Virus record (IMG/VR): IMGVR_UViG_3300018080_000121
Span: 1 to 64,000 of that record
DNA from: a virus
DNA: 64,000 bases
Strand: one strand, 5' to 3'
Below are positions 27,520-52,588 of this stretch, one piece after another. Numbering within the stretch: the stretch's first letter is position 1; each line of letters opens with the position of its first letter. Below the pieces are notes generated by a model. It saw only the letters and a program-made list of their open reading frames with translations, made no database searches and was not told the DNA's origin. Both the position numbers and the translations under genes were made by a program.

Positions 27520-29247
27520 ATGGGAAAAGTTGTATTGTCGGATAACGCTACACAAGTTGCTGAAAGTAGATACTTTATGGACGGAGAAAATTGGATGTCA
27601 TGTACTCACCGCGTAGCAAGCGTGATATCAACACCAGAAAATGAACGACAAAAGTATCTGGATGCTTTCCATGAAATGATTCATAATATGGATTTTCTTC
27701 CTGGTGGAAGAATATTGAGAAATTGCGGGCGACCAAGGGGGTCGCTTTTTAACTGTTACCATCTCCCAATAGGTGATAGCATTGAGGAGATTGGTCAGTT
27801 AATTAAGGACGCATTAATTCTCTGGTCAGAAGGCGGTGGTGTTGGTGTAAACTTTTCACCATTACGACCAAGGGGAGATAAAATTTTTGGAAAGGGTGGA
27901 ACATCATCAGGTTTAGTCAGTTTTATCCAAGCTACGGATGCTGTTGCTGAGACCATTGAAAGTGGGGGAAGCAGAAGAGCAGCAGCTATCGCTCATGTAG
28001 ATGTGTCACATCCAGAGGTGATGGATTTTATTGACGCTAAGTTGGTGGATGGAAGGATCACACACTTTAATATTTCTGTATCTGTAAATGGCAAATTTCT
28101 TGAAGCAGTAGAAGCTGATGGGGATTGGGAATTCAAATTCAAACAGAGAAGTTATGGTAAGGTAAAAGCTAGAGTTATTTGGGATAAAATTGTTGAGAAT
28201 ATGGTAAAGTGTGCTGAACCAGGTTTAATCAACTGGGACAACTTTTCAAAGAACAACTCGTATTATTTTGAACCTGTATTGGGAACTAATCCCTGTGGAG
28301 AAACAACACTTGGACCTTATGGTGTATGCGACCTAGGTTCATTAGTTCTTCCAAATTTTATCACAGGTAAAGTAAACACAAATTGGCAAAAACTAGAAAG
28401 AACAATTAAACTTGCAGTAAGATTTTTAGACAACGTCATTGACGTTAATAAGTATACCTTAAAAGACATTGATATTAATGCCCATAAATCTAGGAGAATT
28501 GGGATTGGAGTACTTGGGCTTGCAGAATATTTATTTGCAAAGAAATTGAGATATGGGAGTGAAAGAGCAATTACAGAAATTGAAAGATTGATGCAATTCA
28601 TTAGAAATGCTTGTTATGTAGCTTCAATTGAACTAGCAGCAGAAAAAGGTTCATTCCCTGCATTTGATCCTATTCAACATAAGAAAGCTTCGTTCGTAAG
28701 AAAACTTCCCGCCAGAATTCGAGCAGACATAAAGAACTTTGGTATTAGGAATACCACGTTAATGGCGATTGCTCCAAATGGTACGATCTCCCTTTTAGCT
28801 GACTATACAGGTAGTGGGGAACCACTATTTGCTAAAGCGTATATGCGACATGACCGTGTTGGAGATAGAATGTATATTCATCCTATCTATGAAGAGATGT
28901 TAAAATCAAGAGAAGAAATTCCAAATTGGTTTGTAGATACATTTGATTTATCTCCTACTGATCATTTTGAAGTTCAGGTCGCGCTACAGAAATATAATGA
29001 TGGGTCGGTTTCGAAAACAATCAATTTACCACATGAAACTACCCCAGATGAGCTGAGTGCCTTATTGTTAGAGTACATTACAGATCTGAAAGGTGTTACC
29101 GTCTATCGAGACGGATGTAGAGATGGACAACCACTTCGCCGTGTTACAGAGGAGGATGCTCGAGCCTACCTAGAGAAAAATGGAAAGATTGAGTCAAATC
29201 GAACAGAGGATGATGTTCGTTGTGTGAATGGTTCATGTGAATTATAA
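27520..29247 (+). CDS. nrdJ: Class II (adenosylcobalamin-dependent) ribonucleotide reductase
   Basis: PGGRIL, NPCGE, CDLGS, APNGTIS, C-terminal CVNGSC; no beta subunit gene nearby. Confidence 0.88.
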   Translation: MGKVVLSDNATQVAESRYFMDGENWMSCTHRVASVISTPENERQKYLDAFHEMIHNMDFLPGGRILRNCGRPRGSLFNCYHLPIGDSIEEIGQLIKDALILWSEGGGVGVNFSPLRPRGDKIFGKGGTSSGLVSFIQATDAVAETIESGGSRRAAAIAHVDVSHPEVMDFIDAKLVDGRITHFNISVSVNGKFLEAVEADGDWEFKFKQRSYGKVKARVIWDKIVENMVKCAEPGLINWDNFSKNNSYYFEPVLGTNPCGETTLGPYGVCDLGSLVLPNFITGKVNTNWQKLERTIKLAVRFLDNVIDVNKYTLKDIDINAHKSRRIGIGVLGLAEYLFAKKLRYGSERAITEIERLMQFIRNACYVASIELAAEKGSFPAFDPIQHKKASFVRKLPARIRADIKNFGIRNTTLMAIAPNGTISLLADYTGSGEPLFAKAYMRHDRVGDRMYIHPIYEEMLKSREEIPNWFVDTFDLSPTDHFEVQVALQKYNDGSVSKTINLPHETTPDELSALLLEYITDLKGVTVYRDGCRDGQPLRRVTEEDARAYLEKNGKIESNRTEDDVRCVNGSCEL

Positions 29248-29911
29248 AACGGGAGTCTCTAGACGCAGAGATCCGAAATAAAACACAGGAGGAAATGTAG
29301 TAATGAAGATGTTTAAATTATTTGGAATTTTTACAATTGTAGTTGCACTTATGTGCGCAGTACCTGCATTCGCAACAGAGGATGTAAAAGCAGTACCTGA
29401 TTCAGGCAACCCTGGTAAAATAGGGTTTGGATTTCATACATTAAGTTCTACTGAAGATACTTACGCGGGTGTAAGTATCCGAGGTTGGACTGACAGCTGG
29501 CTAGGAATGGAAGGAAATTTTTATTATTCAAATGCAGAAGTTAAAAATGAACAAGGTGTTCAAGCCGACGGAGATCTTGCGTTGTATGGCGTGAAGTTGA
29601 TGGCGGCTCCAGTACGTGCTGAACAATCTAAGTTTTATTTCTTTGGCGAAGGATTATGGGGTAAAATTGACGACATTGCTATTTCTGATAAAGCAGATAT
29701 AGCGACCTATGGCGCCGGTTTTGGTTTTGAATGGAACTTTGCTGGAGTACCAGAACTTGGAATTGATATTGAAACCGGGTATTATCTTACTGATACAGAT
29801 GGTACCATTGAACTTGAGAATGAAGATCAAGAGGTTAAAGTCGGCTTCGGAATGCACTATTACTTCGACTAACCATTAATCTAATTTCTCTGCGTCTAGA
29901 GAGTTTCGTTT
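29247..29911 (+). repeat. Inverted repeat pair flanking the beta-barrel gene
   Basis: TCTCTAGACGCAGAGA (29256-29271) is the exact reverse complement of 29887-29902; pairing extends 8 more bp with 2 G.U. Confidence 0.9.
29303..29872 (+). CDS. 8-stranded outer-membrane beta-barrel protein with Sec signal peptide
   Basis: Signal ending AFA; eight amphipathic Gly/aromatic strands; C-terminal KVGFGMHYYFD. Confidence 0.8.
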   Translation: MKMFKLFGIFTIVVALMCAVPAFATEDVKAVPDSGNPGKIGFGFHTLSSTEDTYAGVSIRGWTDSWLGMEGNFYYSNAEVKNEQGVQADGDLALYGVKLMAAPVRAEQSKFYFFGEGLWGKIDDIAISDKADIATYGAGFGFEWNFAGVPELGIDIETGYYLTDTDGTIELENEDQEVKVGFGMHYYFD

Positions 29912-29927
29912 GTAGAAAGGAGTACAT

Positions 29928-30332
29928 ATGGAATCAAAAATTAAGCAATTAGAAAAATGGATTAAAGAAGAACTGTGTCGATGGACTACTTATGAAAGAT
30001 TAGTTGATGATGTAAGTGGTGAGGGTAGTGATGTAGAACGAAAGTGGAGCTTTAAAATATATACTGATAGGTACGTATATAGATTTATAGCCATCGACCG
30101 ATATGGTAAAGACGGATATCTTGGTTGTCAAGTATCCTCCAGAAAAAAGAGAGCTGGTGAAAGCTGGACGAGGGGGAATGATTTACCTGATGGTCCTTTT
30201 ACTAGAGAAACGTGGGAGAGAATTAAAAATGATATGATTGGTTGGGAAATCGTCCCGACTGCATTTTACCCAAACCCTGAAACACTTTCTAGTGAACCAG
30301 CTCAAACAGTAGAGGAGGGAATTGGATGTTAA
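29928..30332 (+). CDS. Hypothetical protein
   Basis: SD AAGGAG. Confidence 0.7.
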   Translation: MESKIKQLEKWIKEELCRWTTYERLVDDVSGEGSDVERKWSFKIYTDRYVYRFIAIDRYGKDGYLGCQVSSRKKRAGESWTRGNDLPDGPFTRETWERIKNDMIGWEIVPTAFYPNPETLSSEPAQTVEEGIGC

Positions 30333-30535
30333 TACTTGAAGCAAAAGAAAAGTGTCCACATTCTGGTCGGTGTAAATACAATGTTGGAAATACGTGTTAT
30401 GGTGCAAGGAATGATCGGGATACCACATTCTCTTGTGAATATGTAGATTCTTCCGGTCGGATTACTGAGTTTGGTCAACAAAGACATCCAATGGACAAAA
30501 CAGGTAAAATGAAAGTTATAATGGAAGGTGCTTAA
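30326..30535 (+). CDS. Small Cys-rich protein
   Basis: CPHSGRC..C..C; SD GGAGG. Confidence 0.6.
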   Translation: MLILEAKEKCPHSGRCKYNVGNTCYGARNDRDTTFSCEYVDSSGRITEFGQQRHPMDKTGKMKVIMEGA

Positions 30536-30969
30536 TGAGTTTTGACAATAATGAATTAATCATCGCCGAGCTTCTCGAAGGGTTTAAAAAACAACGTGTA
30601 GATCTCGAAAAGATGATTGATGATGTCGAACAAATTAAAGAGAAGATAGATACGTTGTTTCCTGATAAGATAGAGAAAAGATTCAGAAATATCTTTGAAG
30701 AGAAAGTTAAAGCAGCATCATCTATGTTCAATGTTTTGTTGGACATCAGAAAAGAGTTAATTAAAAGTATGCGAGATGAGATTGAAATTCGTCGTCGTAT
30801 TACACTTGAATCGACAGGTGGAATGGAAGATATCATCGATGTCCGAGATTTAGCCACACAGGTTGAAAAGTTAAATAAGAAGAAGTTAAAAGTTGTGGAA
30901 AACGTGAAGGACAAGGGAGAGAAGAATGATGGTGGAAAAAGAGGAACAGAAAGTTCAGGAGCAAGATAG
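30535..30969 (+). CDS. Coiled-coil hypothetical protein
   Basis: TAATG-coupled helical ORF. Confidence 0.65.
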   Translation: MSFDNNELIIAELLEGFKKQRVDLEKMIDDVEQIKEKIDTLFPDKIEKRFRNIFEEKVKAASSMFNVLLDIRKELIKSMRDEIEIRRRITLESTGGMEDIIDVRDLATQVEKLNKKKLKVVENVKDKGEKNDGGKRGTESSGAR

Positions 30970-32146
30970 CGGTCCAGCTCAACCCACAAAAGAAGACCTG
31001 TCCAAAATGATGGAGAGTGTTTCTATTAATAAAGATGATGTTGAGATTGAGATTGACAAGGACGAGATTGAAAAGAAAGCAGAAAATGTAGGAGTTGATC
31101 CTGAAACCCTTGCTCTCTATGAAGAGTTTGGTAGTTTCTTAAAAGTTAAAGCTGACATTACGGAAGACACAGGGGTAAAAGCTGTTATCCCTACAGGGAT
31201 TGATGTTCTAGATGGCGCACTCGGTGGTGGATTTGCTGTTGGTACAATGAGTCAAATTGTTGGAAATCCTGGAAGTGGTAAAAGTATGTTAGCTATCCAG
31301 ACAATGGGTTCTGCTCAAAAAGAATATAAGGGTTGTTTAGCATCATTTTTAGACTCAGAAGAAGCCACGACCTCATTAAGACTTTCAAATCTTGGAGTTA
31401 AATATCCTCCAATTAAACCATATACAGATGTGACAGTTGAAAAAGTTTTCAAACATCTTGAAACTATGTGTCTCTTTAAAGAACAAAAGAACATAGTCGA
31501 TGTACCATCTGTAGTGTGCTGGGATTCAATAGCAAATACCCTCTCAGAAAAAGAAAGAGAAGTCGAGGATATTAATTCTGTTATTGGGTACAAAGCAAGA
31601 TTGTTAAGCATTCTAGTTCCAAAATATGTTGCGAAATGTTCAAAGTATGGAATAGCATGGATTACTGTAAATCAAATGCGAGATCAATTAGCAATTGGTC
31701 CTTATTCTGCACCAAAAGAACTAAGATATCTCAGTACCGGAAAAACTCTACCTGGTGGAAATGTACTAAAGTTTAATGCGTTTACACTTCTAGAGTTGAA
31801 AGCAAAAGCCGCTTTAGATCCTGAGAAGATGGGGTTTGAAGGAATGATGGTTACAGCTACAACTGTTAAAAATAAACTGATGCCACCTAATATAGTTGTT
31901 GAATTGATAGGAGATTTTGTAAGGGGATTTAACAACTTCAGAACGAGTTATAACTTCTTAGTAAAAGAAAAGAGACTTGTTTCAGGTGCGTGGAACTACT
32001 TGAAAAGTTATAAAGATAAGAAGTTTCGTACCAAAGATGCTGAGATTTTGTACTACGAAGATGAGAACTTTAGAAAAGCATTTGACGAAGCAACACAAGA
32101 AGCAATTCAAACGGAGATCATACAAAAATATAATCCTAAACTCTAA
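30926..32146 (+). CDS. RecA/UvsX-like recombinase
   Basis: PTGIDVLD, GNPGSGKS, LDSEEA, WDSIA, VNQMR, GGNVLKF, KNKL. Confidence 0.85.
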   Translation: MMVEKEEQKVQEQDSGPAQPTKEDLSKMMESVSINKDDVEIEIDKDEIEKKAENVGVDPETLALYEEFGSFLKVKADITEDTGVKAVIPTGIDVLDGALGGGFAVGTMSQIVGNPGSGKSMLAIQTMGSAQKEYKGCLASFLDSEEATTSLRLSNLGVKYPPIKPYTDVTVEKVFKHLETMCLFKEQKNIVDVPSVVCWDSIANTLSEKEREVEDINSVIGYKARLLSILVPKYVAKCSKYGIAWITVNQMRDQLAIGPYSAPKELRYLSTGKTLPGGNVLKFNAFTLLELKAKAALDPEKMGFEGMMVTATTVKNKLMPPNIVVELIGDFVRGFNNFRTSYNFLVKEKRLVSGAWNYLKSYKDKKFRTKDAEILYYEDENFRKAFDEATQEAIQTEIIQKYNPKL

Positions 32147-32187
32147 CTAGATTTCTCCAAGTTTCCCTCTAACAAGCGTATGATTTT

Positions 32188-32195
32188 AGAACAAA
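32188..32195 (+). promoter_or_regulatory. AGAACAAA motif (candidate late promoter)
   Basis: Intergenic, upstream of the KH/head/baseplate operon. Confidence 0.5.
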
Positions 32196-32238
32196 TTACA
32201 AAATTGAATTACGCTAACAATTTGAAGGGGGAAATGTT

Positions 32239-32538
32239 ATGAAGCAGATGTCAGACTTGCTGCGCGATTATGTTGAAGATACCGTTAAACGACTTGTGGA
32301 CAACCCAAACGAAGTCTCGATTTTTATTACCGTATCTACAAAATCAGTGATTGTACAAATAAAGAGTAAACAAGAAGATCTGGGAAAAATCATTGGTAAG
32401 AAAGGTAGAACCATTGATGCTCTTAAGATCATAACATTAGCAATAAAAAACACACATTTTCCACGAGATACGCGGCGTGTGTCGTTGGAAATAATTGAGG
32501 ATGAAAACTCAAATTTTATGGATCTAAATAAAGGCTAG
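32239..32538 (+). CDS. khpA: Single KH-domain RNA-binding protein (KhpA/YlqC-like)
   Basis: LVDNP.EV and DLGKIIGKKGRTIDALK GxxG loop. Confidence 0.85.
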   Translation: MKQMSDLLRDYVEDTVKRLVDNPNEVSIFITVSTKSVIVQIKSKQEDLGKIIGKKGRTIDALKIITLAIKNTHFPRDTRRVSLEIIEDENSNFMDLNKG

Positions 32539-32566
32539 GTAAATTGATATAAGGAGGACTTTCACG

Positions 32567-33130
32567 ATGTTACAGAAAGAAAGTAAGATCAGAGTTCTTG
32601 AGAACTTTTACTCACTGGACTATGTTTTCTTTGGAAAACCAGTAAAGAAAATGCAGGCCTGTTGTCCATCTCTGATCGAAGATTACATTACAGTTAAAGG
32701 TGCATTGATGTCCTTAATGATTGAAATGTATAAACTGATAGATCATAAACCTGAAGCGATTGACGGTGTAGTCACGTCTGAAGGTTTAGCTGAGACAGCA
32801 AGAGAAAATGCTAAAATTGCCCGAGAAAACGCACACCACTTAGTTCATTCCGACAAAGGTCGACAAGACATTAAAGAAGAACTAAGGAATAGTATTACCG
32901 AAGATAGTGATATCAACATCGAAGAAGAGGTAAAAGACAAAATTAGAGAAAAAGCTTTCTCTCTCGCAATCGACAATATTCTCATTGGTAGAGCAGTCAC
33001 CGAATCTGATCAAATTGAAGTACTCAATGATTGGGAAGGGAAGATTGTAGAGGACGCCTATAAGGTTCTAAGAGATAGCTTGGTAGAAAGTGCTATGTTT
33101 GTCTTAGAAGCGGATGAACTCCTTGAATAA
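32567..33130 (+). CDS. Acidic hypothetical, possible head core/scaffold protein
   Basis: Glu-rich helical ORF with MLQKE-S leader. Confidence 0.5.
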   Translation: MLQKESKIRVLENFYSLDYVFFGKPVKKMQACCPSLIEDYITVKGALMSLMIEMYKLIDHKPEAIDGVVTSEGLAETARENAKIARENAHHLVHSDKGRQDIKEELRNSITEDSDINIEEEVKDKIREKAFSLAIDNILIGRAVTESDQIEVLNDWEGKIVEDAYKVLRDSLVESAMFVLEADELLE

Positions 33131-34019
33131 TGATTATGGAGAACTTGTAAAATATCTCGAGTCACAATTACCGACAGAAAAGGAGATTCCTGATGAATCT
33201 CCTGAACAAGTTTCTGACAATACTCAGAAATTAATCCGAGAATCTTTTGAGGATATACATTCGGATGTCCAGATGGGTACACCGAATGTTACCTCAAAGG
33301 GTTTCGATGTAGGTCGTTTCGAATCTCTTATGAGAGCTCAATTAGTCGGCGACCATAAAAAGATTCAGACCTATGAAAGACCTTATATATCAGTTACCGA
33401 GTTGATTTCTTGTATACGTAAGAGTTATTACAGTCGAATGAAATATCAAATCGACGTTGCACAACAATACTCATTTGCGTATCTATATTTGATCAATAAA
33501 GTCGGGAACGCGGTACATGACGTAATTCAATCTTTATATGATCATACAGAGATTGAAAAAACTATTGTCAGTGAGAAGTTTAAGGTAAAAGGTAGAGTCG
33601 ATGGCATTCGAGACAATTTTCTACTTGAGTACAAAACAATAGATGAGCGAAAATTTAAAGGTGCGTATTTACCAAGTCATTATCATCAAGGACTAATTTA
33701 TGCGTATATATTGAATACTGAGTATGGCTATAACATTGATACAATAACAATAGTCTATATAGTTAGATCACTCAAACGAGTTGTCCCCTTTGACCTACCT
33801 CTCAAAGATGACCTTTCTGTCGACTTCTTAAAAAGGTCTCTTATCCTTCATTCATGTCTTACTGACCAGATAGTTCCAGATCCGATTGGTGCAGATAAGG
33901 AGCAGTGTACGTATTGCTCTTATAAAAAATACTGTAAGAAAGATCATACTGAGATGCTAAGACCGTTTGCACAGACGGCAAAGAAAAACATGAAGCCGAA
34001 GACAGCGTTCTTGTTGTAA
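33114..34019 (+). CDS. Cas4-like PD-(D/E)xK exonuclease
   Basis: SVTELISC, GNAVH, GRVDG..LLEYKT, QGLIY, CTYCSYKKYC Fe-S cysteines. Confidence 0.8.
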   Translation: MNSLNNDYGELVKYLESQLPTEKEIPDESPEQVSDNTQKLIRESFEDIHSDVQMGTPNVTSKGFDVGRFESLMRAQLVGDHKKIQTYERPYISVTELISCIRKSYYSRMKYQIDVAQQYSFAYLYLINKVGNAVHDVIQSLYDHTEIEKTIVSEKFKVKGRVDGIRDNFLLEYKTIDERKFKGAYLPSHYHQGLIYAYILNTEYGYNIDTITIVYIVRSLKRVVPFDLPLKDDLSVDFLKRSLILHSCLTDQIVPDPIGADKEQCTYCSYKKYCKKDHTEMLRPFAQTAKKNMKPKTAFLL

Positions 34020-34034
34020 TATTGGAGGAACAAC

Positions 34035-35846
34035 ATGATAGTTATTTACCCTATGATAGTTTCGAAGTCGGTTAATCCTAATGTTCTTCCTGGTGTATGT
34101 AAAGCGCTGGAAAAATACCTTATTGTTAACAAGATGGATAAGATTGTTGATAATGTAAATAAACAAGCTGGTTCAAAGAAGGAAGTTATTAAGTTAGCAA
34201 AAGGTAAACTGACTATGGAGTCAGTAGAAGAGATCCAGGAAGATAGACCTAAAGGTTCAACTGTTGGAAAAAAAGGGACAACGGCAACAGGAACTAGAGG
34301 TCAAAGTAGTGTTGGGGCAGGATTACCAGGAACTTCATCTGGGCAACGTGCAGGTGGGCGAACTGTTTCTGCACAAGCTGATGCCGAGGGTGGTAAAGGC
34401 GGAATGGCTTGGTCTGCTGGTGGAGCAGGTGGTACAGGACATGGGGGTCTTGCTATAGCTGTAGCACCAACTCCTGAAAAACCAAAAGAGAGACCACCAG
34501 AAGCTAGAGCTACAGCAAGGTTTGATACAAAAATTGATAGTAGAGCTATTACCGTAGAACCTACGACAATTTCAATTGACACTGTTAAAGGTACTCTATA
34601 TCTTGGTATCAAAGTTGTTCCTTATATTGTAAACAATGATACATCACTAATACGTTTGTTAATGAACGATAGATATAGAAGCAAAGCAAGCGCCAACGTT
34701 CAATGGCAAACAAGACGAATTCTTAAAATGATGTGGGGGTTCGCAAATAGGTTCTGGAAGTATACAGTTGGTTTGTTCCATCAAACTGGTCTAGTAGGGC
34801 AAGAGTTATACACGGGAACTCTTACAGGTGATTGGAAAAAAGATGTAATCATTGGAACAACAAAATTTGATAAAAATTTATTCATTCTTGTAAATCAAAC
34901 AGATTTAAAGAGTGACTTTTTATATGATGCAAGTAAAGTTAAGAGATTGTTTAAATTAATGTGGCCATCTCTCATGGTTGCAGATGAAGTTAATCAGAGA
35001 ATGCACTTTTGTATGGACGAATATAAAGGAATGTGTTCAGTAGTTAACTATGGATATTTGTATGCCCTTAGTAGAGAGACGGTACAAGCGTATGAAAAAA
35101 TTACTGATGTACAGAGGTCCGCAGCCTCAGTATTTCGGATGAAGGGGAGATTAACTAACATGATACGCGATGACATTGCATACGATAAATATCTTAAGTA
35201 TTCAAGGGTCAATTTGGTATCAGAATCCGTGGGGTCGCCCATAGTTTCTCGTGTTATGAAAGATATCAAATCTGCGCCAAAGAAGTACAAACAAATATTT
35301 AATGATATGTTGAAAGCGTCACAAAGAAGAGACATGAAAGGTTTGATGTCTTCTGCAAATAAATTAGGAAAGTTTACAATTGATTTTGCTTCACTACAAC
35401 CTATAATGAGAGCTGTTGATGGAAATTACGACAGGGTGTATAAATTTACAGATAAAGTATTTGCAAATTCACTACCCGAAATTCCTTCAGCGCTTCGAAG
35501 TGCAGGTGCTTCATTTCTTGCATTTGCTTCACTTGGAGCAGACAACCCAATGTCTGAAGTTAAAAAGAACATTAAGAAGGTTGTAGTTGATACAAGAAAG
35601 AGTATGAAAAAGAAAGTTGGGGATGAAGATTTTGATAGAGAGATGATGTATGCTTTTGTATTTGGTATTATTTCTACAGGTATTGTAGCTGCAGCCGCTG
35701 TAGCTATTATTCCACCTGTTGTATCATTTGTTGCATCGATTACAGGTACTATAAGCTGGATTGTAACAATTGCTGTTCTTGCAATTGCGTCAGTGACAGT
35801 ATTGAGTATCTTCCAATCTCTTGGTTTTATTCCAGGAGGTAAATAA
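34035..35846 (+). CDS. 603-aa protein with Gly-rich linker and C-terminal transmembrane hairpin; possible ejection protein
   Basis: Gly/Ala/Thr-rich region about residues 70-145; two long hydrophobic segments at the C-terminus. Confidence 0.5.
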   Translation: MIVIYPMIVSKSVNPNVLPGVCKALEKYLIVNKMDKIVDNVNKQAGSKKEVIKLAKGKLTMESVEEIQEDRPKGSTVGKKGTTATGTRGQSSVGAGLPGTSSGQRAGGRTVSAQADAEGGKGGMAWSAGGAGGTGHGGLAIAVAPTPEKPKERPPEARATARFDTKIDSRAITVEPTTISIDTVKGTLYLGIKVVPYIVNNDTSLIRLLMNDRYRSKASANVQWQTRRILKMMWGFANRFWKYTVGLFHQTGLVGQELYTGTLTGDWKKDVIIGTTKFDKNLFILVNQTDLKSDFLYDASKVKRLFKLMWPSLMVADEVNQRMHFCMDEYKGMCSVVNYGYLYALSRETVQAYEKITDVQRSAASVFRMKGRLTNMIRDDIAYDKYLKYSRVNLVSESVGSPIVSRVMKDIKSAPKKYKQIFNDMLKASQRRDMKGLMSSANKLGKFTIDFASLQPIMRAVDGNYDRVYKFTDKVFANSLPEIPSALRSAGASFLAFASLGADNPMSEVKKNIKKVVVDTRKSMKKKVGDEDFDREMMYAFVFGIISTGIVAAAAVAIIPPVVSFVASITGTISWIVTIAVLAIASVTVLSIFQSLGFIPGGK

Positions 35847-36445: not shown

Positions 36446-36457
36446 TAGAGGAAATTT

Positions 36458-36856: not shown

Positions 36857-36869
36857 CATTGGGGGACAG

Positions 36870-37754: not shown

Positions 37755-37758
37755 AATA

Positions 37759-38643
37759 ATGGATTCTTCGAATAGACTTCTTGGCTTTTATAGGGCAAAA
37801 GTGGTGAACAATAGGGATCCAGAAAAACAGGGTCGAGTAATTGTATGGATTCCTGCTATTATGCCTGAGGTTGAAGACACGAAAGGACTATGGGCAAGAC
37901 CTGGAAATAATCCTGTGGGCGGGAGGAATATGCAAGGAGATTCCGCTCATCATAATATGGGAACATGTTATGTCCCACAAGTGGGTAGTTGGGTTTTTGT
38001 ATTTTTTGAAGCCGGAAATATTGATTCGCCATACTATTTTGGTTCTCTTGATATTGGAAATACAAAATCATTACCTGAATGTCAAGACGCAGAATATTGG
38101 AATAAATGGGTTGTGTTTAAAAGTCCACAAGGTCGGTGTGTAGTTATTTCTGATGACCCAAATGATGAAAGAATTGAAATTACAGGAAAGAAAAGACAGA
38201 TTTCAGAACCACCAACTGGAGATGTTCCTTCAGTCTACAATATAGATGATAATCAAACGACTATTTTACTTGATGAAAAATCAGGTCGAGAAAAACTCTT
38301 AATCAGGACGTATAAGGGTGATTTCATTCATATTGATATAGACTCTCAAAAGTTACAATGTTTCTTTGAAGGTGATATTGTGATTGAGAGTGGAGGAAGC
38401 ATTCATATTACTGCTGAAAAGGACGTAAAAGTAAAAGCAGGAATGAATATGCACCTACAATCTGTTCAAGCTATGCATCAAAAGAGTGGAATGAATACGC
38501 ATCATGAATCTGGGGCAGAACATCATACAAAAGTAGCCGGTACTATCAATCGAGATGGGGCGTCAATAAGTGATAACGGCGGGGCAGCTCAACAAGCTGT
38601 TGAACCAAATCCAGACCTTCCAGTAGGTGAAAGGAGCACATAA
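37759..38643 (+). CDS. Baseplate hub/spike protein (gp5/VgrG OB-fold + beta-helix), no lysozyme domain
   Basis: YRAKVVNNRDPEKQGRV, WARP, VPQVGSWVFVFFEAGNIDSPYYFG, C-terminal 8-residue beta repeats. Confidence 0.85.
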   Translation: MDSSNRLLGFYRAKVVNNRDPEKQGRVIVWIPAIMPEVEDTKGLWARPGNNPVGGRNMQGDSAHHNMGTCYVPQVGSWVFVFFEAGNIDSPYYFGSLDIGNTKSLPECQDAEYWNKWVVFKSPQGRCVVISDDPNDERIEITGKKRQISEPPTGDVPSVYNIDDNQTTILLDEKSGREKLLIRTYKGDFIHIDIDSQKLQCFFEGDIVIESGGSIHITAEKDVKVKAGMNMHLQSVQAMHQKSGMNTHHESGAEHHTKVAGTINRDGASISDNGGAAQQAVEPNPDLPVGERST

Positions 38644-42189: not shown

Positions 42190-42190
42190 A

Positions 42191-44530: not shown

Positions 44531-44540
44531 TGGAGTTGTT

Positions 44541-45510: not shown

Positions 45511-45514
45511 TGAT

Positions 45515-46297
45515 ATGTTACTAGAAGAATATCTAGATCATTTACAGGAAATTGAACCAACCACTGCTGCAGGAATAGTAATTGGATCCATGACTTTTTT
45601 GATGATTGTAGGTGGTCCAATTCTGCAAGCACATATGTTAGTGAAAACCTCGAAAAGACACAAGGTTCTAGAAAAGAAACTTAAGGACATACTTCAAGAT
45701 GGACGAGATTGGAAGATATATATCATGAAAGAGAAGCTTCCAAATGCTGGCATTTTAAGTGAAAAACCAGAGATATTTGTAACATCTGGATTGTTTAAGT
45801 ATGTAACGGATCGAGAAGTGATGGCTATACTACTCCACGAAGTAGGTCATATCAGGGGGTTTCATGCGACAAAACAAGGGTGGTCTACAGCAATATTAGT
45901 CAGTCCCGCCATTGCTGCAGCGACAACAACATTATTCAATACCGCAACATTAGTGGCTTCAGCGTTAGCACCACTAGCGGTAATGGCTATTCTATTTACA
46001 TCACATATGATCATGCTTCCTATGAGTAGAAGTCATGAATATAAAGCAGATGAACATACAATACGATATGGATATGGAAAGGATCTAGCCTCAGCCCTTA
46101 AGAAAATGATAAAAGTTCATCAAAAAGGACATTCAAAATTATCTAAGAAAATAGCAAGTTATCTTGATCCACATCCGACAGTTGAAAGGCGAGTAGCAAA
46201 TATATTACTACACGCCTCAACGATAAAACTCATTCTAAAAAATACTTTAACTAAATCGGATGTAGTTAAACATCTCGCAAAACTTTGGAAGGGTTAA
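45515..46297 (+). CDS. M48-family zinc metallopeptidase with hydrophobic segments
   Basis: PNA, LLHEVGH, SRSHEYKAD, HPTVERR; leader LEEYLDHLQE. Confidence 0.85.
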   Translation: MLLEEYLDHLQEIEPTTAAGIVIGSMTFLMIVGGPILQAHMLVKTSKRHKVLEKKLKDILQDGRDWKIYIMKEKLPNAGILSEKPEIFVTSGLFKYVTDREVMAILLHEVGHIRGFHATKQGWSTAILVSPAIAAATTTLFNTATLVASALAPLAVMAILFTSHMIMLPMSRSHEYKADEHTIRYGYGKDLASALKKMIKVHQKGHSKLSKKIASYLDPHPTVERRVANILLHASTIKLILKNTLTKSDVVKHLAKLWKG

Positions 46298-46299
46298 AA

Positions 46300-46644
46300 A
46301 TGTATACATATAGAGCTAAGGTAACAAGGGTTGTCGACGGTGATACATTCCATGCTGAAGTGGATCTTGGCTTTAAATTAACTATGAAACAAACATTTAG
46401 GTTAGCTGAGATTGACACCCCAGAGACATTTCGACCAAAATCTGAAGCAGAAAGAGCGCATGGACAGCAGGCTAAGGAGTTCGTTAAACGAGCAATTGAA
46501 GGAAAGATTGTTACTGTCAAAACGAAGAAGACGGGAAAGTATGGTAGATATATCGCCTATGTAACTTATGGTGGTGGACTTAGTCTATTACAAGAATTAA
46601 GGGACAAAGGATTCGAAAAGAAGGAATCATATGATACAATTTAA
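46300..46644 (+). CDS. Thermonuclease (SNase-like)
   Basis: VVDGDT, RLAEIDTPE, GKYGRYIA. Confidence 0.88.
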   Translation: MYTYRAKVTRVVDGDTFHAEVDLGFKLTMKQTFRLAEIDTPETFRPKSEAERAHGQQAKEFVKRAIEGKIVTVKTKKTGKYGRYIAYVTYGGGLSLLQELRDKGFEKKESYDTI

Positions 46645-49600
46645 GTCACTTAAGCAGTATACTCATCTGGTTGATGGAATTCGATTTCCAAAAAATAGGA
46701 ACGAACCATTTTTACTAGTTTATATGAGTGAGAACTCTACGTTGTTAGATGATTATACTAAGTTAAATCTTCGAAGAACCGATGCGCGGTTTGTTATGGT
46801 TCCGTTAACTAAGATACCTATTTCCAGAATGACAGCTGAGTTAAAAAAATTATATAAGACTCAAGGGTTATACGCATATTCTACATCCCAAAAAGTTCCT
46901 GAAGGACAGAATTTAATTTACGATCTAAGTAACTTTTTGAAAACAATGGACACTACTTATAATGTCAAAACGTACCGACAGCGAGCAGGATTCTTGTTGA
47001 AAAATATGTTGTTAAAAGTTGCAAATTCATACCCTCCCAACTATCAAAAAATACTAATCTATTCAGTTGATACAACAAAATCTATGAATTCATTTATAGA
47101 TAGAAAGATATTTCCTTTGTTGATTCAATTGAAAAAAGAACCTTTCCAATTTGATCATCTAATTCTTAATACCATTGGTGATGCAACTTCTAGGTATCGT
47201 CTTCTAATTAAAGACAGACAATTTAATTTCAATAGAATTCACCAATTTCTAAAGAAGATTAGGCTATTAGATCCCGAAAAAGAGAAAGAAGAACAATTAG
47301 TAAATGCGACTAGTGCGGTCATGAATCGAATTGATGCTGACATTGAACCTAGTAACAAAAGTAAAATAAGGGACGCAATTGTTAGATTTTTTAAGAGAAG
47401 TCCTAAGTCTTTAGAGAAGGCGAGTATTGATTCTATAGATGATAATGAAGCTCAGGAAATCGCTACAGCGTCAATTCTATTTAAAGCGAATGGTGATTTG
47501 TATAGAGCTAGAAGAACCGCCAAATCAATTCCTACAACAAATAAGAAAGCCGCTTTAAAAGTGGTAGATAAACGATATTCTGATGAGCTTTTAAAACCTC
47601 ATAAAACCGAAACTTTATCTGATGATGTAATAGTCCAAGTGGCTAACATTCCAAAAGCTGTAGGGAATAAATCACCGGAGCATATATTTGAGAAACGAAA
47701 AATAGACTTTGCAACTAATCTAAAGAAGGATATGACTAACTCATTTCGAGTTCTCCAGTCAAAAGAGGTCCCATTAAAAGTAGCTAGTGTAAAGATAATA
47801 CAAAAACCAAGTCGTTCTGGAGAATTGCGCAAATCAGATGTTAGTACAATTCAAGTTACTCTTACTGACAAATTTAGAAGAAAACATGTTGTTGATATTG
47901 ATATTCCTAACGTGGGTGAAGATGGTACCTTTTATGTAAATGGTAAACGCAAATGTCTCATTAACCAAATAGTACTTTGTCCTATTTCGTTTCCTAAACC
48001 TTATGATGCTAAGTTTGAGAGTAGTTATTCAACTTTCCATATTTGGAGCAAGAGAACCAAAAGAGAACAGTACTTAGAAGGGTATATTGGTTCATACAAA
48101 CTCCCTCTAATGATACTTCTGGCGTTTAGTTTTGGTTGGGAAGAAACTCTTAAATTGTATGATATCACTCATGAATTTGTAACAGAGAAACCAAGTAAAG
48201 AAGTTGGGTGGAGATATAAATTAGCTGATGACAGATATCTTATTTTTGGAAATGTTGATACCCCATTAAAGGAGGAAATGTGTCAATCGTTTATCCACGC
48301 AAATGTTGCTGCTTATAAACTCAATCAAGAATTTGGAACTAAAGAATATTTTAATGATTTGATTATTAAAATAAGTGGGCGTATTAATTCCACCTTCTTA
48401 ATCGAGTCAAACCTTGAGAATATTGTTGATCCTGTAGCAAGACAGGTGTTAATCAACCAACAACTACCAAGTGATTTATACCTGATTATGAAATATATGG
48501 CTTCAAAGGTAGTAACGGGGTTTACACAAAAACGCAATGACATATCAAACCAGCGAATTAGGAACTCTGAGATATTGGTCCATTTGGCACAGAAACAAAT
48601 ACTTGCTGCCTATACCGAATACAAAGAGCAAGTCCTGGCCGGAAATAAAAAAGCTAATTTTGAGTTGTCACAAACTAAAGTGTTGTCTGATTTTATCAAT
48701 TCCGAAATTGTTTCTGATATGGAGTATGCAAATCCTGTAGAAGAGATGGCTACAAAAACAAGGGTCTCTCCTGTTGGAAAGACTATTGGTGGTATTCCAG
48801 ACAAACAAGCTATCCAAAATGAAGGTCGAAATGTTCATGATTCTATGTTTGGAAATATTGATACATTAGATACTCCTGAAGGACCAAATGTTGGCATTGT
48901 CCAACAATTAACAGTAGACGCATACATCACATCAGCTCGAGGACTTATTGCGACAAAGGATATTAAAGAGGGAGAAGACTCTGGCTTACTTTCTACTACT
49001 AGTTCGCAAATTCCATTTGTTGAAAATAACGATGGGAATAGAGTAATGTTCGGATGTAATCAATCTAGACAAGCAATACCTCTTAAAAACCCAGAACCAC
49101 CAATGATTCAAACGGGATATGAATCTATCCTTACTAACGTTTTATCTGATGCGTTTGTAAAGAGAGCGCCTTGTGCTGGAAAGATAAAAGAGATAACAGA
49201 TGATTTCATTAAAGTAGCTTGTAAGGGTGGTCCTGCAAAGAAAGTAGATATAATTCCTGTTCATTTGAGATCTGGGTCTGGAAAAGATACTCTCAGTGTT
49301 TTTAATCCAAAAGTAAAAGTTGGTCAATCTGTTGCTAATAATCAAATTATTGCAGAAGGTGCCTGTATATCTCAAGGCACTATTGCTCTTGGTAGGACTC
49401 TTTGTGTAGCTTATATGCCTTACAAAGGTTATAATTTTGAGGACGGAATTGTAATTGCAGAGTCGGTTGCTAAAGAAGAAAAACTAACATCTCTCCATGG
49501 AATCATGGAAGAAGTTCTTGTTTCAAGAGATGATAGAATCACTTTTATGACAGAACTTGGAACAAAAACTAAAAGGGGTGATCCGTTAATTCGTAAGACA

Positions 49601-50722
49601 ATAGGAGAAGTTGAACAACTTATTGGTTATGAAGAAGAGGTAGAAGGGGAAGAAATTGTATCAGGACATTTTATCAAAAAATCCCCTGGAGGTGTTGTAG
49701 TTGATATTGAAGTGTTTTCAAATGTTCCAGAAAGTAAATTCCCAGATTTAAAACCTCTCATTCAACGAACAAGATCTCGATATAAAGTTCAACCAAAAGA
49801 GAAATTTACAGTTCGTGGTGAAACTGTAAAGGGTGTGTTGATTAGATTTAAAGTTGAACAAGAATTACCGATTGGAGTTGGAGATAAATTAACAAATCGA
49901 CATGGTGCGAAAGGTATTGTATCGTTGATTGAGAAAGATGAATTGATGCCACGGACTCCTACCGGAGATAAAATTGAAGTAATTTTAAACCCAATCGGTG
50001 TTATTGGTAGAATGAACGTTGGACAATTATATGAAATGTATGTTGGGTTAATCTCCAGAGAATTAGGTAGAAGGATAATAGCTGGGAAGAGTAAATCAAA
50101 AGCTGTAGCTCTGATGAAAAGTGTCTTACCAAAACTAGATACAACAAAGAATAAAGAATTCAGTAAAACATTAATTCGAAAATTTCAGGGATTGAATGCA
50201 ACTAAATTTAAACAGTTTATGGATCAAGTAAGTCAATCAAATAATATGACGATCCTAGTACCACCATTTAAAGCTCCAAGTTATCCTGAGATACTTTCAG
50301 CAATGAAAATGTTGAAATTGAAGCCGGGTTATAAGTTAAAGCTTCCAGAGTATAACACAACAACAAAACATGAAGTCCCAATCGGATATCAATACATTTT
50401 GAAACTCGAACATATTGGAGCTGAGAAACTGCACGTTAGAAGTACAGGTCCGATAACAAGTAAGACAATGCAACCGACTTCGGGTAAACGAAGAGAGGGT
50501 GGTCAGAGAATGGGTGAGTTGGATACATACTCGTTTATATCTTATAATTGTCCAAACTTGTTAGCAGAATTTTTTGGACCACTTTCAGATGACCATGTGA
50601 CAAAGAATCAAATTTTGTCCGATATTATACAGACAGGTAGTGCTCAGTATAGACCACCTAAAGCATCACCTGTCCGAGATTTGTTAAATTCATATTTTGT
50701 TTCATTAATGATAGGGAGGTAG
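46631..50722 (+). CDS. rpoB: Phage RNA polymerase beta subunit with long N-terminal extension
   Basis: GTFYVNG, DTPEGPNVG, NNDGNRVMFGCNQSRQA, GYNFEDG, GDKLTNRHGAKG, RMNVGQ, GGQRMGELD. Confidence 0.95.
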   Translation: MIQFKSLKQYTHLVDGIRFPKNRNEPFLLVYMSENSTLLDDYTKLNLRRTDARFVMVPLTKIPISRMTAELKKLYKTQGLYAYSTSQKVPEGQNLIYDLSNFLKTMDTTYNVKTYRQRAGFLLKNMLLKVANSYPPNYQKILIYSVDTTKSMNSFIDRKIFPLLIQLKKEPFQFDHLILNTIGDATSRYRLLIKDRQFNFNRIHQFLKKIRLLDPEKEKEEQLVNATSAVMNRIDADIEPSNKSKIRDAIVRFFKRSPKSLEKASIDSIDDNEAQEIATASILFKANGDLYRARRTAKSIPTTNKKAALKVVDKRYSDELLKPHKTETLSDDVIVQVANIPKAVGNKSPEHIFEKRKIDFATNLKKDMTNSFRVLQSKEVPLKVASVKIIQKPSRSGELRKSDVSTIQVTLTDKFRRKHVVDIDIPNVGEDGTFYVNGKRKCLINQIVLCPISFPKPYDAKFESSYSTFHIWSKRTKREQYLEGYIGSYKLPLMILLAFSFGWEETLKLYDITHEFVTEKPSKEVGWRYKLADDRYLIFGNVDTPLKEEMCQSFIHANVAAYKLNQEFGTKEYFNDLIIKISGRINSTFLIESNLENIVDPVARQVLINQQLPSDLYLIMKYMASKVVTGFTQKRNDISNQRIRNSEILVHLAQKQILAAYTEYKEQVLAGNKKANFELSQTKVLSDFINSEIVSDMEYANPVEEMATKTRVSPVGKTIGGIPDKQAIQNEGRNVHDSMFGNIDTLDTPEGPNVGIVQQLTVDAYITSARGLIATKDIKEGEDSGLLSTTSSQIPFVENNDGNRVMFGCNQSRQAIPLKNPEPPMIQTGYESILTNVLSDAFVKRAPCAGKIKEITDDFIKVACKGGPAKKVDIIPVHLRSGSGKDTLSVFNPKVKVGQSVANNQIIAEGACISQGTIALGRTLCVAYMPYKGYNFEDGIVIAESVAKEEKLTSLHGIMEEVLVSRDDRITFMTELGTKTKRGDPLIRKTIGEVEQLIGYEEEVEGEEIVSGHFIKKSPGGVVVDIEVFSNVPESKFPDLKPLIQRTRSRYKVQPKEKFTVRGETVKGVLIRFKVEQELPIGVGDKLTNRHGAKGIVSLIEKDELMPRTPTGDKIEVILNPIGVIGRMNVGQLYEMYVGLISRELGRRIIAGKSKSKAVALMKSVLPKLDTTKNKEFSKTLIRKFQGLNATKFKQFMDQVSQSNNMTILVPPFKAPSYPEILSAMKMLKLKPGYKLKLPEYNTTTKHEVPIGYQYILKLEHIGAEKLHVRSTGPITSKTMQPTSGKRREGGQRMGELDTYSFISYNCPNLLAEFFGPLSDDHVTKNQILSDIIQTGSAQYRPPKASPVRDLLNSYFVSLMIGR

Positions 50723-50727
50723 TTACA

Positions 50728-51048
50728 ATGATTACTGACGCTTACTTAGAGTTCCTAACTGAGCAAGATGAGGGTGAAGAAGAAAAGAAGCCTTTTTATA
50801 AAAGAGGATCTTTTTGGAAGAAAGCTGGCGCTGTTGCTGCATTAGGTGCAGCTGGATACGCTGGTCATAAATATGGTGGAAGAGCAGCAGCTGCGGCTAA
50901 AAGTGCTGCAGAGAAAGTTGGACAACGAACCGGACTTACCGCCGGCATGAAAGCTATGCGAGCATCGTTGAAAAGTCAGGCAGCTGAGCGAGCAAAAGCT
51001 AAGGCTGCCAAAGCCGCTCAAGCTAAACAACCAGCAACAACGGTATAA
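50728..51048 (+). CDS. Ala/Lys-rich putative head-internal protein
   Basis: Leader TDAYLEFLTE; AGAVAALGAAGYAG segment. Confidence 0.6.
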   Translation: MITDAYLEFLTEQDEGEEEKKPFYKRGSFWKKAGAVAALGAAGYAGHKYGGRAAAAAKSAAEKVGQRTGLTAGMKAMRASLKSQAAERAKAKAAKAAQAKQPATTV

Positions 51049-51049
51049 T

Positions 51050-51634
51050 ATGGATAGATCTAAAATTCTAATGGGAGCAAGTGTTGCCCCATTGGAGATG
51101 GATGATGAGGATCTTTGGGGACAGCAAGAAGACGCTTCTATCCAGTATGATGTTCTAGAATTAGTTGACGCTATTGATAAGTTAGAGTTTAAGTCTTTAT
51201 ACTTAAACTCAATTAATAATATCAAAGCAGAAACAGTACCTGCTCAACGAGACTTTTGTCAGAAGTTTCTTATAAAAGTAAAAGAATTATATGATTTTGA
51301 GTTTCTCCCACATCCCGAATTAGAAAACCAAATCGACATGAACAACGTTTATGATCTTTTAGAGTTTCTGAATTTTGGGTGTATACCCTTCCTTGGGGAT
51401 GTGTGGAGATTCCTCAAAGTCGATTTAAGAAAAATTGATGTGATATCTTTCTGCACCCAAAACGAGGATAAAGTTATCTCTGAGATTGAGGACCAGATTC
51501 AATCACACGATTATAGCGAGTTAATTTCTATATTTCTTAGAACATATAATAAAGAAAGTATGGTAAGTTGGTTTGCGAGAATGACCCAACGTTATAAAAT
51601 GTTGGTGTTACTAAGAATCGCGGAAGGGATGTAA
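51050..51634 (+). CDS. Hypothetical protein
   Basis: Operon-coupled ORF. Confidence 0.7.
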   Translation: MDRSKILMGASVAPLEMDDEDLWGQQEDASIQYDVLELVDAIDKLEFKSLYLNSINNIKAETVPAQRDFCQKFLIKVKELYDFEFLPHPELENQIDMNNVYDLLEFLNFGCIPFLGDVWRFLKVDLRKIDVISFCTQNEDKVISEIEDQIQSHDYSELISIFLRTYNKESMVSWFARMTQRYKMLVLLRIAEGM

Positions 51635-51635
51635 A

Positions 51636-51893
51636 ATGAGTGAATTTCGAATTGAGTTAAAGAAAGGGTCTGCTAAATTAGTGGCTGACCGAGAAGAACT
51701 GGTTGGAGTTTCTGAAACACATGAAGGTCTTGTATTCAATTTCAAGGGCGGTATGAATGTTGTAATACATGATGATTATATGTCCAGTTCTGTGAAGAAA
51801 AGGGTTACTAATGCAGATCGTCAATTTGCTGAGGGAAATCTCATTTTTGATATGGATAATCCTCGGGCACCTGTCCTTGTGGACACCACTTAA
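51636..51893 (+). CDS. Hypothetical protein
   Basis: Operon-coupled ORF. Confidence 0.65.
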   Translation: MSEFRIELKKGSAKLVADREELVGVSETHEGLVFNFKGGMNVVIHDDYMSSSVKKRVTNADRQFAEGNLIFDMDNPRAPVLVDTT

Positions 51894-51917
51894 AAATTCT
51901 ATATAAAAATCAAGATC

Positions 51918-51929
51918 TATATATATTAA
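51918..51929 (+). promoter_or_regulatory. TATATATATTAA motif (candidate early promoter)
   Basis: Same motif class as 15266 and 40174; heads the right-arm operon. Confidence 0.5.
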
Positions 51930-52132
51930 TATACAGATAGGAATATTTGTATTTACAGATGTTCCTGAATACCAATCAATTAAAACACAGATAAGGGGAT
52001 AAGTTTGCAATCACATAGTCGATTTCGAAAAACGGGAGGTATGGGTTTCTTCCGTTGTCATGGAAAGGGGGTGGGGCGACTGGGTCGTTGGGCAATTCAG
52101 GTTAACCATTAGGGCAGCAAGAAGGGAACGAG

Positions 52133-52309
52133 GTGGCGAAGAAACAGGACGTGAAGAAGCTGAGAAGAAGAGTCATACATTATTATGAGCAGGCAGCGCT
52201 ACCTGTACTTATTAAAGAAGCGCAGGATCTTGGACTACGAATTCCGAAAGCCATTTTAATGGAATTTGAAAAAACGCGTCAAGATTCTCCAATGCACAAC
52301 CAAGGCTAA
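52133..52309 (+). CDS. 58-aa ORF (not in ORF track)
   Basis: GTG start after AAGGGA; MAKKQDVKKLRRRVIHYYEQAALPVLIKEAQDLGLRIPKAILMEFEKTRQDSPMHNQG. Confidence 0.5.
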   Translation: MAKKQDVKKLRRRVIHYYEQAALPVLIKEAQDLGLRIPKAILMEFEKTRQDSPMHNQG

Positions 52310-52313
52310 ATAA

Positions 52314-52528
52314 CGATAGTGATGACCAACCTCGACGTTGGAGATTGCTATTGTATCGTATATAATGATCGACGCACCCGACTGCGATCGATGGTTATGT
52401 CAAATTTAGACAATGCGAGTCGCTAGCACTTGACTGCTAGGAACTCCATTCTAATCTTATGTCTAATCCTTAATTGGATTAGGTGTTTGATTGGAATGGG
52501 GTTTCTAGTGGTCAAGTGCTGGCGACTC
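52314..52528 (+). ncRNA. Candidate structured RNA: two stem-loops plus a 53-bp hairpin
   Basis: Hairpin 52417-52528 has 42 Watson-Crick pairs, 9 G.U and 2 U.U; stem-loops at 52314-52353 and 52361-52399; no Rfam family recognised by eye. Confidence 0.65.
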
Positions 52529-52588
52529 ACGCCTAAACCGTTTTCCGTTTTTGTCGTTTTTCGTTTGAATATTTTCGGGAGGTGCTTA

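Follow-up and report, generated by a model that had tools for sequence, protein, structure and literature searches.

A single gene in a long DNA-metabolism operon of a jumbo phage, encoding a 189-aa outer-membrane beta-barrel protein (OMP), is bracketed by two 25-nt arms that form a gene-specific RNA helix on the sense strand. This element, referred to here as locus 1, lies in a window of 64,000 nt (positions 1 to 64,000 of IMG/VR record IMGVR_UViG_3300018080_000121) and may well be a processing or insulating stem of the RNase III type, at which cleavage would take place. The first-pass annotation had proposed that two 9-mers, AAACGGGAG and TTTCGTTTG, close the same panhandle around this gene and around an unrelated unit elsewhere in the window (locus 2). 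Only locus 1 is a real element, and the recurrence of the two words at locus 2 looks like coincidence.

Structure of the stem and its gene context

The 5' arm (29247-29271, + strand) and the 3' arm (29887-29911, + strand) make up a 25-nt inverted repeat with 24 of its 25 positions paired when G.U pairs are counted. From its outer end the 5' arm consists of an outer helix strand, AAACGGGA (29247-29254, +), an unpaired G (29255, +) and 16 nt of perfect Watson-Crick pairing (29256-29271, +), which include a core, CTCTAGACGCAGAG (29257-29270, +), that is identical in three of three phages. The 3' arm has a corresponding 16-nt inner part (29887-29902, +) including the invariant core CTCTGCGTCTAGAG (29888-29901, +), then an unpaired G (29903, +) and the outer helix strand TTTCGTTT (29904-29911, +). 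The arms occupy the spacers flanking exactly one gene and enclose a loop of ~615 nt, the 5' arm directly after the upstream stop codon and the 3' arm directly before the SD of the next gene. On inspection of the sequence, dyad symmetry within the arms was limited to CTCT...AGAG.

The upstream gene (27520-29247, +) encodes the large subunit of ribonucleotide reductase (RNR; Pfam PF02867, E 1.6e-102). All four 9-mer elements had been described as intergenic and are indeed non-coding, but base 29247, the first of the 5' arm, closes the RNR stop codon as its last base. The enclosed OMP gene (29303-29872, +; Pfam PF13505, E 2.9e-8) specifies a signal peptide and has an SD, ACAGGAGGAA (29285-29294, +), that is conserved across relatives. 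At E<=1e-10 a search of 5.8 billion proteins yielded just three homologues of its product, and a PDB sequence search with that protein returned no significant relative; because the phage carries this gene its host should be Gram-negative. The 134-aa gene that follows (29928-30332, +) has no assigned function, its SD starts ~6 nt past the 3' arm and its homologues follow the bracket in both relatives.

Searches of Rfam 15 gave no match at the gathering score for the whole window and none at E<=1 for 29150-30000, no tRNA genes were found in the window, and a phage GenBank collection yielded no match by megablast or blastn. Scans for sigma-70 promoters and intrinsic terminators found nothing at either arm, and a local 5-bp hairpin in the 3' arm did not qualify as a terminator.

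Helices between spacers were ranked by a gapless-helix score combined with shuffles. This replaced an RNAduplex ranking of all the spacer pairs, in which long spacers gained inflated energies from unbounded interior loops. The locus 1 helix was the best inter-spacer helix on the 121,292-nt contig (score 51, against 32 for the next best) and arose in the smallest search space; 3000 shuffles gave 16.3 +/- 2.6 with a maximum of 29. All other long inverted repeats on the contig fall within coding sequence. Folding in a 1465-nt context gave a pair probability of ~1.0, with 0.55-1.00 across 24 of the 25 positions of the 3' arm. Duplex energies in the three phages were -41.1, -39.4 and -32.7 kcal/mol with 24-27 pairs, and the minimum free energy (MFE) fold of the 690-nt unit closes with the arm helix in each of them, as does the RNAalifold consensus. 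The RNA helix belongs to the sense strand, as each of the six wobble pairs is a G.U on the + strand, A.C positions do not occur, and the wobbles fit that strand only. There is at least ~20 bp of near-continuous duplex on the transcribed strand, as a stem of the RNase III type needs.

Conservation

The bracket is retained in both known relatives (L004 and L013), that is in all three known members of the clade, with a common layout of a fixed 14-16-bp core, a purine-purine mismatch (present in 3/3 phages) and an A/U-rich outer helix of 7-13 bp. Every core position (28 of 28) is invariant, compared with 57/164 (35%) of the OMP gene's third codon positions. In the outer helix only 4/10 positions per arm are unchanged, yet that helix is paired in every one of the three phages, as AAACGGGA/TTTCGTTT in the window, TATAAAAGGC/GTCTTTTGTA in a second phage and a 13-bp A/U helix in L013. 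Pairing is therefore kept with compensatory change in the outer helix, as judged from three genomes and an outer-helix alignment with indels; the core pairs never vary and so carry no covariation information either way. In the window and in L004 the upstream stop codon overlaps the 5' arm or lies directly next to it. L013 has a NUMOD3 homing-endonuclease gene inserted between RNR and the 5' arm, and its bracket is intact and still with the OMP gene.

The core is present in only two copies on its own contig, with no others within 2 mismatches. A search of IMG/VR with the core 14-mer matched 99 contigs, among which a +/- pair was found in the two relatives only; the rest were single copies judged to be at chance level, and L088 carried three copies on the same strand. 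A metagenome scan for further relatives recovered the same two phages. The 9-mers themselves are conserved at neither locus in the relatives.

Proposed function

In the model that we favour the two arms would pair across ~615 nt on the sense transcript of the operon and loop out exactly the OMP cistron together with its own SD. A double-strand-specific endonuclease, in the simplest case the RNase III of the host, would cut this helix of at least two turns and yield a monocistronic OMP mRNA with its two ends still paired. The fate of this message would be uncoupled from that of the RNR message upstream and of the 134-aa gene message downstream, the bracket acting as an insulating and processing device for a moron-like gene, and the sequence of the outer helix would be free to vary provided that pairing persists. 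That the helix forms in vivo, that it is cleaved and that it alters stability or expression are inferences. Paired cuts in vivo have been mapped for E. coli RNase III in long-range intramolecular stems of mRNAs, with sites 16-1080 nt apart (Altuvia et al. 2018, PMC6212723). An RNase III gene (PF14622) was not found in the three phage contigs, which are 39-48% complete. As a counterpoint, each ribosome that finishes translation at the RNR stop codon would open the 5' arm for a short time.

The 14 invariant bp of the core exceed the known requirements of RNase III; the helix may therefore be read by something else, or its core may act at the DNA level. On the sequence comparison, the fixed core suggests sequence-specific recognition beyond mere pairing. 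Taken further, and as a distinctly speculative idea, the invariant duplex with its purine-purine mismatch might be the recognition site of a dedicated phage or host factor, rather than of generic RNase III, that excises or masks one cistron of the jumbo-phage operon transcript. Were this true, the resulting mRNA cassette, its ends paired, would insulate an acquired gene naturally at the RNA level. In phages that use RNA polymerases of their own, it might be linked to when or where the message for an envelope protein appears.

Should processing occur, the stem would stand as a clear example from nature of a phage that uses a long-range stem in the style of rRNA to cut out or shield a single protein-coding cistron within an operon. 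An acquired surface-protein gene would gain its own stability and dosage with the neighbouring DNA-metabolism genes left undisturbed, and the two 25-nt arms would offer a compact part for insulating genes in synthetic operons. For uncultivated jumbo phages the bracket would also give RNA-end mapping a specific hypothesis to address.

Alternative explanations

The same sense-strand helix could form and stay uncut, as a structural fold-back or insulating element comparable to the fbi of hok, the 5'-3' UTR pairing of icaR and the Min Jou interaction of MS2. Such a helix might shield the OMP segment from RNase E and exonucleases, gate the downstream SD (~6 nt after the helix) or couple expression to upstream translation that opens the 5' arm. 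The structural and conservation evidence applies to it equally, and the contact of the 5' arm with the stop codon in the window and L004 would suit it; we nevertheless consider it unlikely. In any host with the enzyme, RNase III would be expected to be drawn to a ~25-bp helix that contains 14-16 bp of perfect duplex. The L004 MFE fold adds pairing over the OMP SD, which fits an uncut element, but the SD is unsequestered in the folds of the window and L013, and the homing-endonuclease insertion in L013 displaced the upstream stop codon from the arm with no loss of the bracket. Pairing between 5' and 3' UTRs is documented in a bacterial mRNA, icaR of S. aureus (PMC3868564), whose two ends pair in a duplex that RNase III targets.

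An inverted repeat, perfect over 14-16 bp, around a 615-bp segment with a surface-protein gene is also the general layout of an inverton. The arms would then be recombination sites, and inversion of the segment would turn the OMP gene ON or OFF within the operon in a phase-variable way; the presence of an invariant core in both arms would suit recognition by a protein. This DNA-level reading is improbable. The segment has the same orientation in three independent assemblies, and neither a serine (PF00239) nor a tyrosine (PF00589) recombinase was found in the three contigs, all of which are incomplete. The outer helix pairs despite sequence change and the imperfections are all + strand G.U, neither of which a double-stranded DNA site requires, and the arms are without internal dyad symmetry beyond the short motif noted above.

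Still less probable is that the arms are a relic or a pair of DNA operators, either the terminal inverted repeats (TIRs) of a cargo element that brought the OMP gene, possibly by inserting itself into a pre-existing terminator hairpin at the loop, or two binding sites of a DNA-binding regulator. The bracket and the OMP gene do travel as a unit, and with its A-tract/stem...stem/T-tract order the region looks like a terminator that an insertion has divided; the distant relatives L008-L010, which have no OMP gene, carry at the homologous place a GC-rich hairpin followed by TTTTTTTCGTTTATAGAAGGAG. Against both versions stand the restriction of the core to two copies on the contig and, as a pair in IMG/VR, to this clade. 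A relic would not hold 28/28 invariant positions while synonymous sites are 65% changed, and there is neither a transposase nor a target-site duplication (no direct repeat beside the arms). The outermost bases of the repeat are the variable part, the opposite of transposon ends, and a pair of operators would not need compensation in the outer helix. A TIR-bounded mobile element (IS or MITE) was rejected on the same two core copies, the missing flanking direct repeat and the variable outermost bases.

Comparison with known systems

The leader-trailer stems of 16S and 23S rRNA in rRNA operons and the long-range mRNA sites of E. coli resemble locus 1 in that segments hundreds of nt apart pair over at least two turns and enclose a whole functional RNA. 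The earlier likening to rRNA leader/trailer signals is supported for locus 1, a conserved sense-strand helix around the OMP cistron, on stronger grounds than those first given, but not for locus 2. Unlike those stems, locus 1 encloses a protein-coding cistron in a phage operon, is a candidate for cleavage, and has an invariant 14-bp core beyond the known requirements of RNase III. In the early region of phage T7 (R0.3-R1.3) host RNase III cuts the polycistronic transcript between cistrons, internal mismatches shape the cleavage and the leftover helices stabilise the products. The T7 sites are local hairpins that recur at many junctions, whereas locus 1 is a single long-range helix over one gene, once per genome.

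In hok mRNA the end pairing of the fold-back element was established by covariation, and hok and icaR resemble locus 1 in that the RNA of one cistron pairs with itself end to end. Those pairings sequester SD or translation signals in monocistronic mRNA, whereas the OMP SD lies in the loop, mostly unpaired, within an operon. The Gin/Cin/Hin systems and invertons share with locus 1 inverted repeats of 14-30 bp around a segment of a few hundred bp that affects a surface protein; locus 1 differs in that no recombinase was found in the three incomplete contigs, a single orientation was seen and its wobble imperfections are strand-specific.

The 9-mers at the second locus

Both words recur as first annotated, AAACGGGAG at 29247-29255 and 52030-52038 and TTTCGTTTG at 29904-29912 and 52559-52567, and the 3' words do lie just before the SD of the next gene, at a distance of 5-15 nt at each locus. 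Across the contig (121,292 nt) TTTCGTTTG occurs only twice, but AAACGGGAG has a third copy (81626), inside an RNAP-beta-like coding region and without a partner. That a shared AAACGGGAG...TTTCGTTTG signal excises or circularises the units at both loci is very improbable, even though both words recur exactly, in the same order, in non-coding sequence and 529 nt apart, with a nominal chance of ~0.015-0.05. A recurring, mutually pairing word pair arose in 2.75% of 400 order-3 Markov genomes (0.015-0.048 by conditional estimate). However, 36% of the simulated genomes contained some 9-mer from the 5' arm with some 9-mer from the 3' arm following it within 3 kb, and a second such pair is present on the actual contig at 38085/40246.

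The supposedly identical 8-bp helix is, at locus 1, the outer third of the 25-nt repeat and, at locus 2, at chance level. The locus 2 helix scores 19 and ranks ~9th in its spacer pair, the best helix there (27) falls within the shuffle null of 24.1 +/- 2.8, and the pair probability is 0.000; with the locus 1 core present only twice on the contig, a signal common to two unrelated units does not survive. The 5' word of locus 2 is consumed by a local 8-9-bp hairpin (52030-52056, +; 52031-52038 with 52049-56) in window-specific sequence missing from the relatives, and has no panhandle role. The 3' word (52538-52567, +) is one instance in a (T3-5 G/C)n tract after a large hairpin; the relatives retain the tract and not the word. 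As the 5' word lies in unshared and the 3' word in shared sequence, the pair does not mark the ends of a single unit. Nor does locus 2 of the relatives repeat the words that make up their own outer helix (AAAGGCGA / GAGTCTTTT in G001). Circularisation found no support: the three partial contigs yielded no gene for RtcB or for an RNA ligase. A 9-mer pair with a nominal p of ~0.03 failed tests of folding, background and conservation, and there is therefore no evidence here for a genome-wide panhandle code.

The large hairpin of locus 2, which gave only sub-threshold, generic miRNA-like long-hairpin scores in Rfam (52416-52525), is a separate feature of 112 nt (52417-52528, +) whose position is conserved in the relatives.

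Inverted repeat around the OMP gene

The first-pass annotation had described the 9-mers AAACGGGAG and TTTCGTTTG as closing the same panhandle at two loci, and both words were located exactly at 29247-29255 and 29904-29912 (locus 1, around the gene for a 189-aa OMP beta-barrel protein at 29303-29872) and at 52030-52038 and 52559-52567 (locus 2). The 8-bp helix was present at locus 1, but it proved to be just the outer third of an overlooked inverted repeat of 25 nt, whose arms at 29247-29271 and 29887-29911 form 8 bp (two of them G.U), then a G/G mismatch and 16 bp of perfect Watson-Crick pairing. Spacers were delimited by crude gene calls, and the best gapless helix (GC 3, AU 2, GU 1, mismatch -5) was sought on both strands for all spacer pairs no more than 5 kb apart; locus 1 ranked first with a score of 51 versus 32 for the next best, and its search space was by far the smallest in the scan. 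When its two spacers of 65 nt were shuffled 3000 times, the score was 16.3 +/- 2.6 and never exceeded 29. Elsewhere on the contig, every long inverted repeat had at least one arm in coding sequence, and nearly all had both there. Within a 1465-nt transcript context the MFE fold paired 24 of the 25 positions, with probabilities of 0.55-1.00 that were mostly >=0.99. A weak local hairpin, CUCU-N6-AGAG, is also possible within each arm, and the two hairpin loops are mutually complementary.

Conservation in related phages

Only three homologues of the OMP protein were found at E<=1e-10 among 5.8 billion proteins, and scans of viral and metagenome contigs led to the same two other phages, G001 (contig L004, the same as L014) and G002 (L006, the same as L013). 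In both, the OMP gene lies directly upstream of a homologue of the 134-aa gene that follows it in the window. The bracket formed by the two arms was kept in both relatives (2/2), a comparison that covers three genomes only, all incomplete and all metagenomic. Its core, CTCTAGACGCAGAG / CTCTGCGTCTAGAG, was identical across the three phages at 28/28 positions, compared with invariance at 57 of 164 third codon positions of the OMP gene and at about half of the neighbouring spacer positions. Pairing alone does not explain this invariance, which may reflect recognition of the sequence itself or a further role of each arm. On the whole contig the core occurred in exactly two copies with none other within 2 mismatches, and across IMG/VR it was found as a +/- pair in this clade only. 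An unrelated viral contig (IMGVR_UViG_3300009684_001982, L088:8809-9014) carried three same-strand 14-mer copies of the core ~80-115 nt apart, which are probably a tandem repeat.

The mismatch adjoining the core was purine-purine in each phage (G/G, tandem GA/GA and A/G). Beyond it the outer helix was predicted to pair in all three despite differing sequence: the window has AAACGGGA/TTTCGTTT, L004 has TATAAAAGGC/GTCTTTTGTA and L013 an A/U-rich helix of 13 bp. This compensation argues that the pairing is under selection. Duplex energies were -41.1, -39.4 and -32.7 kcal/mol, and the bracket helix closed the MFE fold of every unit as well as the RNAalifold consensus for all 780 alignment columns. 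Non-Watson-Crick pairs within the helices were in 6 of 6 cases G.U or U.G on the + strand, with no A.C, the mismatch to be expected had the opposite strand been the functional one. This pattern of wobbles argues for pairing in the sense RNA.

One relative only carries an insertion upstream of the bracket: in L013, a free-standing homing endonuclease of 316 aa with NUMOD3 motifs (2486-3436; Pfam E 7.7e-11) is encoded between the gene for the ribonucleotide reductase large subunit (RNR-L) and the 5' arm. The bracket there was intact and still hugged the OMP gene despite the insertion, and it therefore belongs to the OMP cassette rather than to the RNR 3' end; direct abutment on the RNR stop codon is not needed.

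Possible role of the bracket

Locus 1 is a genuine, conserved and gene-specific long-range RNA bracket, for which the known long-range processing or fold-back stems are the best class. A near-perfect duplex of ~25 bp is a standard RNase III substrate. In vivo mapping in E. coli has located paired RNase III cuts in stems formed within one RNA molecule, the two sites being up to 1080 nt apart (PMC6212723), a documented range that would include the 615-nt loop here. These considerations, together with the apparently selected pairing and the sense-strand wobbles, favour an RNase III-type processing and insulating element for the OMP message, a reading to which we give an even chance. Such a bracket would free, or set apart, a monocistronic OMP mRNA whose ends are paired.

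Second to RNase III-type processing comes an uncleaved structural role of the helix, as a fold-back or through opening linked to translation, which can be likened to hok fbi, icaR (PMC3868564) and the Min Jou interaction of MS2. As to origin, it is plausible that the bracket is the relic of an insertion into a terminator, as the distant relatives L008-L010, which have no OMP gene, carry at the corresponding position a GC-rich hairpin with TTTTTTTCGTTTATAGAAGGAG after it, although such a history leaves the continued constraint unexplained. At L008:3200-3510, and likewise in L009 and L010, two similar GC-rich hairpins of ~40 nt lie upstream of the 134-aa homologue; the second, with its TTTTTTTCGTTTATAGAAGGAG, resembles the window 3' outer arm and SD, TTTCGTTTGTAGAAAGGAG, and may be a clue to where the outer helix came from. 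The circularisation put forward in the first-pass annotation gained no support, neither an RNA ligase nor RtcB being found in the three partial contigs. Transposon ends were disfavoured by the presence of two copies only, the absent target-site duplication and the termini being the variable part, and an inverton by the identical orientation in 3/3 assemblies, the wobble-only imperfections and the lack of serine and tyrosine recombinases in the three partial contigs.

Genome setting

The whole IMG/VR viral contig, of which the window makes up the first 64 kb, is 121,292 nt long, with 37% GC and a CheckV completeness of ~39%. Its products include two RNA-polymerase beta-like proteins, RNR-L, a UvsX-like recombinase and a KhpA-like KH protein, a set consistent with a jumbo phage that has multisubunit RNA polymerases of its own. 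At both loci the surrounding genes are all on the + strand and tightly packed. The KhpA/KhpB-type KH-domain gene (32239-32538; PF13083, E 3.8e-17) lies in the same operon 2.3 kb downstream of the bracket, and its product is a phage RNA-binding protein. Past the window, at 84375-100650, is a cluster of unusually long spacers of 250-540 nt (at 84.4, 85.2, 90.0, 94.0, 96.5, 99.4 and 100.3 kb) with high mutual RNAduplex scores, for which spacer length alone may account.

The second locus

A panhandle common to the two loci was not borne out. At locus 2 the 8-bp helix had no extension, scored 19 and stood about ninth within its own spacer pair, where an A/G-rich segment can pair with a T-rich tract in three registers; the best helix there, 27, was within the shuffled distribution (24.1 +/- 2.8). 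The 8-bp helix had a pair probability of 0.000, the 5' word closing a local hairpin instead (52031-52038 with 52049-52056). A search for the 9-mers found AAACGGGAG three times and TTTCGTTTG twice on the whole contig, the third AAACGGGAG, at 81626, being within an RNAP-beta-like coding region. In 2.75% of order-3 Markov genomes, 9-mers from the two arms that pair with each other recurred no more than 3 kb apart, and a conditional estimate gave 0.015-0.048; the coincidence is nominally unusual, yet it was picked post hoc. With any 9-mer from one arm allowed to precede any from the other, recurrence rose to 36% of simulated genomes, and a second pair of this sort was present on the real contig.

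The locus-2 spacer is ~340 nt in both relatives versus 695 nt in the window, and the 58-aa ORF and both 9-mers were missing from it. The outer-helix words of G001 did not recur at its own locus 2 (GAGTCTTTT was found solely at locus 1, and the nearest AAAGGCGA was within coding sequence), and those of L013 were absent from L122, the locus-2 contig of G002. The window TTTCGTTTG is one instance of a conserved (T3-5 G)n tract and AAACGGGAG lies within window-specific sequence, so the two words bound no single unit. This window-specific stretch of ~350 nt (52030-52330), missing at locus 2 of both relatives, comprises a G-rich leader and a basic 58-aa ORF with a GTG start (52133-52309) that had no Pfam or PHROG match.

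Locus 2 does conserve a promoter-like, AT-rich box, a large ~45-bp hairpin and, ahead of the SD, the (T3-5 G)n tract. The hairpin, the sole large structure at locus 2 and separate from the proposed panhandle, has 53-nt arms in the window (52417-52528) and ~45 bp in the relatives (L005:2136-2227, - strand; L122:1354-1443). In all three phages it is placed alike, 3' of the box and 5' of the tract and the SD of a 190-aa gene. The hairpins of the two relatives align, with 2 compensatory pairs, and the window hairpin is unrelated in sequence. Possible roles are those of a small RNA or a structured leader, and RNase III might also act on it.
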